Origin: Escherichia coli | GTDB taxonomy: Bacteria > Pseudomonadota > Gammaproteobacteria > Enterobacterales > Enterobacteriaceae | Assembly: GCF_003018255.1 (NCBI RefSeq) | Contig: NZ_CP027440.1 | Length of the DNA: 64,000 nucleotides | Reading direction: 5' to 3' (one strand) | In this document: positions 5,280-8,971 of the stretch, piece after piece | Layout: every line of letters begins with the position of its first letter | How positions within the stretch are numbered: position 1 is the first letter of the stretch | The notes under the pieces: model-generated | The model's input: the letters and a program-made list of their open reading frames with translations, nothing else | What the model was told of the DNA's origin: nothing | The model's database searches: none | Position numbers and translations under genes: made by a program

Positions 5280-6011
5280 ATGGCGCTTTACACAATTGGT
5301 GAAGTGGCGTTGCTTTGTGATATTAACCCTGTCACGTTACGCGCGTGGCAGAGGCGTTACGGATTGCTGAAACCGCAACGGACAGACGGCGGTCATCGGC
5401 TGTTCAATGATGCCGATATTGACCGGATCCGCGAGATCAAACGCTGGATCGACAACGGCGTGCAGGTCAGCAAAGTTAAAATGCTGCTCAGTAATGAAAA
5501 TGTTGATGTGCAGAACGGCTGGCGCGATCAGCAAGAAACATTACTAACTTACCTGCAAAGCGGCAATCTGCATAGCCTGCGAACGTGGATCAAAGAGCGC
5601 GGTCAGGATTACCCCGCCCAGACACTCACCACGCACCTGTTTATTCCTCTGCGCCGACGACTTCAGTGCCAACAACCGACTCTCCAGGCGCTGCTGGCGA
5701 TCCTCGACGGCGTACTGATCAACTACATCGCCATTTGTCTGGCTTCGGCACGTAAAAAACAGGGTAAAGATGCGCTGGTGGTTGGCTGGAATATTCACGA
5801 TACCACCCGTCTGTGGCTGGAGGGCTGGATTGCCAGTCAACAAGGATGGCGCATTGATGTCCTCGCCCACTCGCTCAATCAACTACGCCCTGAACTGTTC
5901 GAAGGCCGTACATTGCTGGTGTGGTGCGGTGAAAATCGAACCTCCGCCCAACAGCAGCAACTCACCAGTTGGCAGGAACAAGGCCATGATATTTTCCCAC
6001 TCGGCATTTAA
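5280..6011 (+). CDS. mlrA: MerR-family transcriptional regulator MlrA
   Basis: 243-aa ORF with N-terminal MerR HTH (YTIGEVALLCDINPVTLRAWQRRYGL). Confidence 0.92.
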   Translation: MALYTIGEVALLCDINPVTLRAWQRRYGLLKPQRTDGGHRLFNDADIDRIREIKRWIDNGVQVSKVKMLLSNENVDVQNGWRDQQETLLTYLQSGNLHSLRTWIKERGQDYPAQTLTTHLFIPLRRRLQCQQPTLQALLAILDGVLINYIAICLASARKKQGKDALVVGWNIHDTTRLWLEGWIASQQGWRIDVLAHSLNQLRPELFEGRTLLVWCGENRTSAQQQQLTSWQEQGHDIFPLGI

Positions 6012-6070
6012 TCATTCGTTAACAAATGCGCTTTACTGTACAATCCTTTCGTTAACATAAGGAGTGCATT

Positions 6071-6178
6071 ATGCGCATAGCTAAAATTGGGGTCATCGCC
6101 CTGTTCCTGTTTATGGCGTTAGGCGGAATTGGTGGCGTCATGCTCGCAGGTTATACCTTTATTTTGCGTGCTGGCTGA
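6071..6178 (+). CDS. yohO: small membrane protein YohO (35 aa)
   Basis: ATG 6071, translation [35 protein letters not shown], single TM helix; GGAG RBS at 6061-6064; 3-prime end overlaps yehW stop region convergently. Confidence 0.7.
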
Positions 6179-6890
6179 ACGCCTGCACCAGCCTTTCAAA
6201 CAGGCGGTCTGCGATGATCGCCGCCAGTGCCACCAGTAACGCTCCCTGGATCACATACGCGGTATTAAATCCGCTAAGTCCGATGATGATGGGCGTACCC
6301 AGCGTGTTGGCCCCTACCGTTGAGGCGATCGTCGCCGTGCCAATGTTGATAATCACCGAAGTTCGTACACCCGCCAGAATCACCGGAGCTGCCAGCGGTA
6401 GCTCGACCTTACGCAGTCGCTGACTACAGCTCATTCCCATGCCTTTGGCAACTTCGGTCACGCTGGCATCAATCGATCCCAGCCCGGCAAGTGTCGCCTG
6501 CAGGACGGGCAGCACACCGTAAAGGATCAAGGCGATAATCGCCGGTTGCTGACCAAAGCCGATCACCGGAACGGCAATCGCCAGCACTGCAACGGGCGGA
6601 AAAGTCTGTCCAACGGCGGCAATAGTTTCCACCAGTGGACGAAATTCCGCGCCCCAAGGGCGAGTGACAGCAATTCCGGCACCAGTACCAATGATCACCG
6701 CAAACAAACTCGAAATTCCCACCAGCCAGAAATGAGCCAGTGCCAGAGCTGCAAAGCTTTCCTGCTGATAAACGGGTCGTGGCAGTTGTGGGAACAAGGC
6801 AGCAAACAGCGGCTGGCTGTAAGGCAGCCAGAAAATCAGCGCCACAAACAGAGCAATCAGCCAGAACAGCGGATCGCGCAACATCTTCAT
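6159..6890 (-). CDS. yehW: ABC transporter permease YehW (osmoprotectant uptake system)
   Basis: 243-aa polytopic membrane protein; first gene position in yehZYXW-type operon. Confidence 0.9.
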
Positions 6891-6894
6891 ACGA

Positions 6895-7821
6895 TTACGC
6901 CTCCTCCAGCAGATCCTGAAAATGCAGCGTGCCGCAAGGCTCGCCCTGCGTGTTCACCACCGGCAGCACCTCGCATCCCCGCGCGACAAACAGAGAAAGC
7001 GCATCGCGTAGCGTCATCTCTTCTGCCAGCGCCTCACCTTCTGCCCGTTCTTCGCGACGCACGTAATCCGCCACGCTACGTAACGAAAGCAGGCGGACAC
7101 CCAGTTCACTATGCCCAAAAAACTGGCGGACAAAATCATTCGTCGGACGAGTCAGCATCGTCAGCGGATTGCCCTGCTGCACCACTTCACCGTGATCCAT
7201 CAACACCAGATGTTCTGCCAGTCGTAGCGCCTCATCAATATCATGAGTGACCAGCACAATGGTACGCCCCAGCAAACGGTGTATGCGCGTCATCTCTTGT
7301 TGCAACGCGCCGCGCGTTACCGGGTCCAGCGCGCCAAAAGGTTCATCCATCAGTAAGACTTGCGGATCGGCAGCCAGCGCGCGGGCCACTCCCACACGTT
7401 GCTGCTGACCACCGGAAAGCTGATGCGGATAACGCTCACGCAAATTTGGCTCCAGCCCCAGTAGCGCCATTAATTCGTCGATACGATCGTCGATCCGCGC
7501 CCGTGACCATTTTTGTAATTGCGGCACGGTGGCAATATTTTGCGCCACGCTCCAGTGGGGAAACAGGCCAATAGATTGAATGGCATAGCCCATCCGGCGG
7601 CGCAACTCCAGCACTGGCAGCGAGCGAATTTCTTCTCCGGCAAAGCGGATCACGCCACTGTCATGCTCCACCAGGCGGTTAATCATTTTCAGAGTGGTGG
7701 ATTTACCGGAACCCGACGTGCCAATCAGTACCGAAAAACTCCCTTCCTGAAAATTGAGATTGAGATCGTTAACGGCTTTTTGTGCGCCGAACAGTTTGCT
7801 GACATGGCTAAATTCAATCAT
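6895..7821 (-). CDS. yehX: ABC transporter ATP-binding protein YehX
   Basis: Walker [13 protein letters not shown] signature LSGGQQQR, Walker B LLLMDEP, C-terminal CBS-like region. Confidence 0.93.
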
Positions 7822-8971
7822 TACGTTTCACCTTCAGCAGTGCGATAAGCAAATCGAACAGCGCGTCGGTAAGCACCGCCAGAACAATTACCGGGATCAC
7901 CCCCAGCAACACTAAATCAATGGCACTGCTTAGCAGCCCCTGGAAAACCAGCGCACCAAAACCGCCTGCGCCGATTAACGCCGCAATCACCGCCATGCCA
8001 ACGGTTTGTACCATCACCACCCGCAGGCTGCGCAGAAATACCGGTAACGCCAGCGGTAACTGAACATGCAGGAAACGCTGCACCCCGCTCATCCCCATCG
8101 CTCTGGCGCTCTCCAGCACATCGCGCGGGATCTGGTTCAAGCCGACTACTACGCCGCGCACCAGCGGCAGCAAGGCATAGAGCACCAGCGCAATCAGTGC
8201 GGGTGTCATTCCGGTTCCTGCTATGCCGAGCGTTCCCAGCCACGGAAAGGCCGTAACCAGCGCGGCAAGCGGCGCAATCAGCAGGCCAAAGAGCGCTACC
8301 GAAGGCACGGTCTGAATGACATTCAGCAGAGAAAAAATCGCCCCCTGCCGCGCGGTGGAAAAGTAGCACCAGATGCCCAACGGCACACCAATCACTAACG
8401 CAGGCAGCACCGCACCAAACAGCAACGTCAGATGTTGTGCCAGCGCGTCGTCAAACACATCCTGACGGTTGGCGTATTCTTTCATTAACGAGAGATCGTT
8501 AAGCGTGCCGGAGTACAGCAACCACAGCGGAACAATGGCAATCTGCATATGCAACAACCAGCGCCACAGCGGATGCGTGGAGATTCGGCGGATGGCATCG
8601 CTACAGGCCAGCAGTGCCAGCGCCGCAGCCAGCCAGAAACCACTTCCGAGGCTGGTACGCGCCAGCGCACTGCCATTTTGCGCCAGTTGTGTCGCCGCCT
8701 TTCCAGCTCCCCACACCAGCAATACGAAGACGAATTGCGCCAGAATGAGTGCAAAAATGCTGCCTTTTTTAGCGGGAATAAAACAGGCTGTCAGCCAGGC
8801 GCAACCAACGCCCACCAGCATCCAGAGAGTTTGCGGCCACAGCTGCCAGAGATGACGCCCCTCACCCGAAACTAAACGATTAGGTGCGTAACTGATAAAC
8901 GGCAGCGCCGCTGCGATTGCCGTCAGCAACAGCAGCAGCGCCAGAACAGGATTAATACGGAAATAAGTCAC
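7814..8971 (-). CDS. yehY: ABC transporter permease YehY
   Basis: 385-aa polytopic membrane protein; GTG start; 8-bp overlap with yehX. Confidence 0.9.

Follow-up and report, generated by a model that had tools for sequence, protein, structure and literature searches.

The tail-to-tail coding overlap of yohO and yehW in Escherichia coli and its conservation across the Enterobacteriaceae

The small gene yohO and the permease gene yehW of Escherichia coli meet tail to tail and have 20 nt of coding DNA in common, an arrangement that keeps its phase throughout the Enterobacteriaceae loci that we surveyed. Here we examine this overlap in a 64,000-nt stretch of E. coli DNA (contig NZ_CP027440.1), which we call the window—positions given below are those of the window. 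In our judgement it is rather likely that the overlap is mainly a frozen result of compaction, with reciprocal antisense effects that are unavoidable and probably modest; we infer that the antisense contact amounts at most to mutual dampening and is not a dedicated switch. The genes, their overlap, the overlap of their transcripts and the duplex processed by RNase III are already known from annotation or published tables. What we add is incremental: the family-wide, phase-locked overlap, its independence of what lies upstream of yohO, the dominance of the YohO reading frame, a putative conserved yohO promoter, and two outgroups that carry no yohO.

The coding sequence of yohO occupies 6071–6178 on the + strand; it opens with ATG, runs for 35 codons and closes with TGA at 6176–6178. 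That of yehW, 243 codons long, occupies 6159–6890 on the - strand and closes with TAA, which reads TTA on the + strand at 6159–6161. The ORF list and the raw sequence bear out the 20-nt convergent overlap at 6159–6178 that the first-pass annotation had reported, and the two genes are a convergent overlapping pair in the full sense: both coding sequences are genuine, they lie on opposite strands, and their 3' nucleotides belong to both. In phase, yohO codon positions 1, 2 and 3 lie opposite yehW positions 1, 3 and 2. The last six yohO codons are, on the opposite strand, the C-terminal tail of YehW, and the conserved Phe-Ile codons of YohO (TTY-ATT) supply the yehW stop codon on the complementary strand. 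A true yehW stop farther upstream would have abolished the overlap; there is no such in-frame stop, and YehW is 243 or 245 aa long in 80 of 80 species.

The same arrangement is found in K-12, where genes, order and the 20-nt overlap are identical to those of the window, which comes from another E. coli lineage. RefSeq places yohO (b4542) at 2215657–2215764 and yehW (b2128) at 2215745–2216476 of MG1655, and the window is collinear with that genome (offset 2209586, no indels, 97.7% identity over 1.9 kb). The yohO stop codon is TGA in the window and TAA in K-12; the YohO protein itself is identical to YOHO_ECOLI. Of 5426 complete E. coli genomes, 5423 carry the region, and the nearest E. coli genome in RefSeq is annotated with mlrA, yohO and yehW-yehX-yehY-osmF and an equal 20-nt overlap. 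Over positions 5800–6500 identity is 99.4% with E. coli 2014C-3338 and ~97% with K-12 and the majority of other E. coli genomes, which marks the window as a less common lineage of the species.

YehW matches the Pfam family BPD_transp_1 (PF00528) at residues 68–238 (E = 1.7e-26), and yehW is the permease gene that stands last in the osmF-yehYXW glycine betaine ABC transporter operon. Upstream of it on the same strand, the ORF list and the RefSeq annotation place yehX (6895–7821, - strand), yehY (7814–8971, - strand) and osmF, so that yehW stands in an operon with an ATPase, a second permease and an OpuAC-type binding protein. The operon, as yehZYXW, is reported to depend on sigma-S (Checroun and Gutierrez 2004, as related by a citing paper), and the same is reported of mlrA (Brown 2001, likewise through a citing paper). 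The latter gene, at 5280–6011 on the + strand, is the upstream neighbour of yohO in Escherichia but is not constant elsewhere. Two side observations concern these neighbours. In the first 13 codons of mlrA (5284–5318, + strand) a consensus scan picks out a terminator-like hairpin at 5284–5306 followed by a T-tract, GCGTTGCTTT; since the hairpin coincides with a published Term-seq 3' end (MG1655 2214904, window 5318, 38 nt into the ORF), premature termination or attenuation at the start of mlrA is suggested. Within yehW, between yohO and yehX, genomic SELEX recorded binding by the holoenzyme of a minor sigma factor; the peak (old K-12 coordinate 2214150; type D, within gene) falls at window ~6543 by coordinate arithmetic.

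The product of yohO is a 35-aa peptide with a GRAVY of 1.58, and its best 19-residue Kyte-Doolittle window of 2.41 agrees with the one transmembrane helix assigned by the first-pass annotation; in size and predicted topology YohO is consistent with a single-pass inner-membrane protein. The protein is also said to associate with the membrane, a result of Hemm and colleagues from 2008 as relayed in a Ribo-seq preprint. Family membership (UPF0387 / NF010225 / PF27791) is clear: against the NCBIfam model NF010225, 'protein YohO', the peptide scores 80.1 bits over a cutoff of 57 with residues 1–35 of 35 aligned, and homologues carry precomputed PF27791 matches. The local copy of Pfam, which is without the YohO family, gave no match for YohO. 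The transmembrane core, M-A-x-x-G-I-G-G-V-M-L-x-G-Y, is mostly kept among homologues, with several residues invariant, and contains a GxxxG-type motif suited to helix packing. Ribosomes do occupy yohO, as the first-pass reading presupposed: Ribo-seq gives coverage in the correct frame (bioRxiv 10.1101/2020.05.05.079178), and top-down mass spectrometry has found the protein with the K-12-identical sequence (PMC12529367). YohO is thus genuinely made according to both published methods, and the purifying selection described below supports this.

How widely the overlap is kept was assessed with one genome per species, which gave 80 loci with a YehW relative from ~25 genera of Enterobacteriaceae. 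A yohO homologue is convergent to yehW and overlaps it in all 80; 79 are intact. In the remaining copy, that of Citrobacter amalonaticus AUH_CA_2023_1 (locus L006), a 1-nt insertion lengthens a T homopolymer at yohO codon 11–12, and the resulting frameshift occurs in that assembly alone; we take it for a probable error of long-read assembly and not for a pseudogene. Three overlap lengths occur, all of them 2 mod 3: 34 loci have 20 nt, 44 have 26 nt and two have 17 nt. The 26-nt form carries a 6-nt insertion (GYGGCG) between window positions 6167 and 6168 and is found in 44 species, including those of Enterobacter, Klebsiella, Kosakonia and Leclercia; here a single event has altered two proteins, adding two residues to each, for a YohO of 37 aa (...RGGVG) and a YehW of 245 aa (...RHRREQ). 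In the 17-nt form the yohO stop is placed one codon earlier.

Our searches found YohO solely in Enterobacteriaceae; a search of 1.84 billion representatives returned 17 clusters, mostly of frameshifted copies. The most divergent YohO proteins found are those of Mangrovibacter and Shimwellia, and in both yohO overlaps a yehW homologue by 20 nt. Upstream of yohO in these loci (L082–L087) lies metG or an HTH regulator in one genus and a TonB-dependent receptor in the other, with no mlrA; nor was mlrA found within 2.5 kb in 6 of the 80 loci above. As the overlap is kept despite these changes upstream, yohO is tied to yehW and not to mlrA. Counting all 86 loci, yohO adjoins yehW in every one regardless of the upstream gene, and no locus has a resolved (separated) overlap. 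Synteny of this kind is uninformative among the explanations weighed below, because the overlap itself enforces linkage.

Outside the family, a word-indexed homologue search with YehW gave close relatives alone, and two outgroups were drawn from a plasmid collection: the four-gene operon of Yersinia pseudotuberculosis and Azospirillum oryzae has no yohO-like ORF downstream (best HMM E-value 0.7). The Azospirillum YehW nevertheless ends in ...ARWSQH, comparable to ...QAFSQHAK in the window, and the Yersinia tail is likewise comparable. Since these operons are without yohO yet have a comparable YehW tail, the two outgroups suggest that yohO came later, originating beside a yehW 3' end that was already in place and extending into it.

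Selection within the shared codons was read from the mean column entropy at each codon position in an alignment of 81 sequences. Beyond the overlap the yohO columns give a clean coding pattern (0.56, 0.20 and 1.23 at positions 1, 2 and 3); in the core of yehW the corresponding values are 0.25, 0.08 and 1.23. In the overlap, yehW position 3 falls to 0.60 from the 1.23 of the core (p = 0.008), and position 2 rises to 0.81 from 0.08 (p = 8e-5). The four yehW codons directly ahead of the overlap are almost free to vary (1.18/1.18/1.54), which indicates that the YehW tail is weakly constrained. Wobble sites of yohO in the overlap have an entropy of 0.94 versus 1.23 outside, a difference that is not significant, and variation persists at them. 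The yohO frame therefore dominates the overlap, where the coding signature of yehW gives way to the yohO one. Across the 81 sequences, entropy gives no sign of an extra RNA-level constraint in the overlap, and the two protein frames account for the pattern fully; the comparison of synonymous sites that the first-pass annotation had proposed accordingly returned the expected double protein constraint alone.

On the 5' side, yohO appears to have a promoter of its own, as judged from a promoter-like block that is conserved in all genomic contexts. The putative -10 element, TACAAT at 6039–6044 (+ strand), has its T, A, A and T positions invariant in 81 of 81 sequences; it reads TATAAT in 63 of the 81, covering most genera, and is kept also next to upstream genes other than mlrA. 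A consensus scan did not flag this promoter because its -35 element is weak. The transcript start lies at ~6053 in the data of Conway and colleagues, as far as these are tabulated in Huang 2020 (PMC7373196). Farther down, the ribosome binding site called as GGAG by the first-pass annotation is a strong Shine-Dalgarno sequence, AAGGAG, at 6059–6064 (+ strand), 6 nt 5' of the ATG; G6061, G6062 and A6063 are invariant in 81 of 81 sequences, G6064 is present in 77 of 81, and the ATG is invariant across all 81.

Several further elements were noted around this promoter. Two copies of a TTAACA motif (TTCGTTAACA in this window), 33 nt apart on the + strand, bracket the yohO -10 and are kept next to unrelated upstream genes. 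The copy at 6019–6024 has each position conserved in 77–81 of 81 sequences, in all genomic contexts, and the copy at 6052–6057, at the transcript start and in the 5' UTR, in 71–79 of 81; the pair looks like a candidate regulator operator or a promoter/5' UTR element. Two other candidates were rejected. Anti-Shine-Dalgarno pairing by CCTTT (6045–6049) in mlrA read-through transcripts would need an upstream arm that is not conserved. The likeness of TGTACAAT (6037–6044) to a half-site of the MlrA box does not extend to the other half, which matches at 4–5 positions, and most genera have TATAAT here. On the - strand, a promoter-like site (ATGACC-17-CATAAT, 6096–6068, start at ~6061), whose -10 lies antisense to the region of the yohO start codon, would fire towards the 3' end of mlrA; it matches an antisense start, 2213668 (-), that Huang 2020 tabulates from Thomason et al. 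This site may be lineage-specific or spurious, since conservation of its -10 stops at Escherichia, with position 6070 variable. Finally, yohO mRNA was ~8-fold lower in RNA-seq of Shigella flexneri under anaerobiosis (log2 = -2.96), a hint that the yohO promoter may be oxygen-responsive.

Between the two stop codons there is no room for a terminator, and we found no bidirectional intrinsic terminator: the intergenic space is zero, a terminator consensus scan gave 3 sites against 3.1 expected—chance level—with none at the junction, and RNA folds of the two strands were not significant (z = -0.87 and -0.23), with no match in Rfam. With no terminator between yohO and yehW, an overlap of their transcripts is unavoidable. 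Where the yohO mRNA ends is known from K-12: Term-seq places a 3' end, labelled 'primary yohO / antisense yehW', at MG1655 2215813, which is window 6227 (Adams et al. 2021, PMC7815308). This end lies inside yehW and antisense to it, 49 nt beyond the yohO stop. A GC-rich hairpin at 6203–6225 (+ strand), predicted by folding and without a U-tract, precedes it by 2 nt. On average 5.6 of the 7 hairpin pairs are kept, as against 1.5–4.6 for slid controls, in a comparison whose pairs were drawn from the fold of the reference sequence and fall within conserved codons (AAIIADR). Deeper in yehW, also on the + strand, a region of Rho-dependent termination lies at ~6409 (2215995 (+), Rho score 5.6, p = 9e-16; Adams 2021, PMC7815308, supplementary file 2).

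The two RNAs also meet as a duplex. A p19-captured RNase III dsRNA cluster in K-12 covers ~6083–6374 (Huang 2020, PMC7373196, Table S1, cluster 173, label 'yehW yohO', type 'Full'), with roughly equal sense and antisense reads, and the same study lists individual duplexes at window 6176 onwards, 6180–6200 and 6214–6234 (Table S3). The cluster ranks within the genome's strongest ~300–380. The Conway et al. transcripts tabulated there include a 254-nt yohO transcript, from ~6053 to 6307, that is entirely covered by a - strand operon transcript reaching ~6053. The complementarity between yohO and yeh RNAs is therefore ~250–300 nt, not 20. ExcludonFinder (PMC12288877) includes yohO-yehW among 165 convergent excludons in MG1655, their transcripts overlapping in 50% or more of the 58 RNA-seq samples from K-12. 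By these published data the pair has, in K-12, the overlap of transcripts and the RNase III processing of the duplex that are expected of an excludon. The first-pass annotation had held that the convergent overlap implies mutual transcriptional interference or antisense regulation; the RNA-RNA contact is real in K-12, as Term-seq, dsRNA and the excludon listing attest, but 'implies' claims more than this evidence gives for interference or regulation.

We propose the following course of events for a compaction origin. Two independently transcribed genes would have come to abut, with 20 nt of coding DNA in common, when yohO was placed against the 3' end of the older osmF-yehYXW operon. Once formed, the overlap would be hard to undo, as separation or rearrangement would damage one gene, and so it would be inherited family-wide with in-frame changes alone. 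Without an intergenic terminator the yohO and yeh transcripts each run into the other: yohO mRNA ends at the hairpin 49 nt inside yehW or deeper, at the Rho-dependent site, and the yeh operon mRNA crosses the whole of yohO. The complementary RNAs pair and are cut by RNase III. The anatomy, conservation, transcript ends and dsRNA on which this account draws are observed. Counting for it are a true YohO protein, the constant phase in 80 of 80 loci, the dominance of the YohO frame, the narrow distribution of yohO, a promoter of its own, and the fact that convergent overlaps are common, with ~75 such CDS pairs in E. coli (Huvet and Stumpf 2014, PMC4161906). Three points weigh on the other side. 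None of 86 loci has resolved the overlap, which could also reflect selection for the arrangement; a dsRNA cluster among the strongest in the genome means that the antisense contact is not trivial; and mscL-arfA is a precedent for a convergent E. coli pair that is truly regulatory.

These same points make a functional excludon the first alternative to weigh, and we regard it as unlikely but a serious candidate: the yohO unit would be a selected cis-antisense regulator of yehZYXW, and vice versa, acting via convergent transcription and RNase III cleavage of the duplex, so that the outputs of small protein and transporter would depend on each other. The frequency of overlapping transcription, the balance of sense and antisense reads in the cluster, the complete cover of the yohO transcript by that of the operon, and the family-wide conservation of arrangement and yohO promoter are all in keeping with such a circuit, for which mscL-arfA is a proven precedent. 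The excludon listing carries less weight, since overlap between two transcribed CDSs is in itself enough to satisfy a definition based on coverage. Nor is the presence of duplex decisive: in the p19 dataset 87% of genes yield at least a little dsRNA, and the genome-wide yield from convergent (3') overlaps is much lower than that from divergent overlaps (Huang 2020, PMC7373196). Synonymous sites beyond the 20 nt vary normally and no conserved structure is found; none of the datasets examined here shows an effect of either gene on the output of the other.

In a further version, which we also find unlikely, the phase-locked overlap itself would be selected. The yohO unit would serve as both 3' boundary and cis-antisense regulator of yehZYXW, with polymerase from the yohO promoter and RNase III setting the 3' end of the operon; YohO might in addition be an accessory subunit. 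If this were true, the small gene and the transporter would form one conserved functional module.

The accessory role can also be considered by itself: YohO may be a subunit or modulator of the YehYXW-OsmF transporter, with the overlap incidental. We think this quite improbable. The constancy of yohO beside yehW whatever lies upstream, and a largely conserved transmembrane core with several invariant residues and a packing motif, would suit a transporter partner; however, the overlap alone is enough to enforce the linkage, the convergent genes do not form one transcription unit, yohO is missing beside the operon in Yersinia and Azospirillum, and the literature searched gave no interaction data for YohO. 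The constant attachment of yohO to a betaine transporter operon still provides a concrete first functional hypothesis for YohO.

A type I toxin-like YohO, held in check by the antisense 3' part of the yeh operon mRNA, is very improbable. YohO is small and hydrophobic, the antisense transcript covers all of yohO, and the dsRNA is cut by RNase III, as would be expected of such a system. The protein nevertheless accumulates detectably by mass spectrometry in normal cultures, and an IPTG-induced yohO clone was recovered growing in a published overexpression screen. The gene is single copy and strongly conserved family-wide, unlike typical type I toxins, and it has no dedicated small antisense RNA—Rfam gave no match and the antisense RNA is the operon mRNA. 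By the Rfam search, the nature of the transcript, the mass spectrometry and the viable overexpression clone, the locus does not fit the definition of a type I toxin-antitoxin system.

An annotation artefact—no yohO gene, or a yehW that ends upstream—would draw on the frequency of spurious short ORFs and the blank local Pfam search, but it is already refuted by the NCBIfam equivalog match, codon-periodic conservation with ATG and Shine-Dalgarno invariant in 81 sequences, detection by mass spectrometry and Ribo-seq, and a yehW stop with no in-frame stop upstream of it and a protein length fixed at 243 or 245 aa.

Overall the significance of the pair is small, and as a gene pair yohO-yehW is ordinary. 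The comparative result is modestly useful as a natural example of a small-protein gene that stays tail to tail with an older operon across a family.

Against this background, yohO-yehW can be placed among known systems. Short convergent overlaps are a familiar class (PMC4161906) in which yohO-yehW is one of the E. coli pairs, and such pairs arise by stop-codon movement; it differs from the others in having a verified small protein and a phase kept across the whole family. Among the convergent excludons of ExcludonFinder (PMC12288877) it is listed on coverage alone, whereas mutually exclusive expression is a hallmark of excludons that goes beyond that listing. The pair also resembles mscL-arfA (PMC10070815), which likewise sets an osmotic-stress-linked membrane protein gene tail to tail with a very small gene and has overlapping transcripts with RNase III acting on the duplex. 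For mscL-arfA, however, a regulatory effect on mRNA stability and a phenotype were measured, and yohO-yehW is documented for duplex and cleavage only; in yohO-yehW, unlike mscL-arfA, the coding sequences themselves overlap.

Small membrane proteins such as KdpF, AcrZ and MgtS partner with transporters. YohO resembles them in its similar size, single transmembrane helix and small-residue packing motif; unlike them, it is encoded by a gene that is convergent to the transporter operon rather than inside it.
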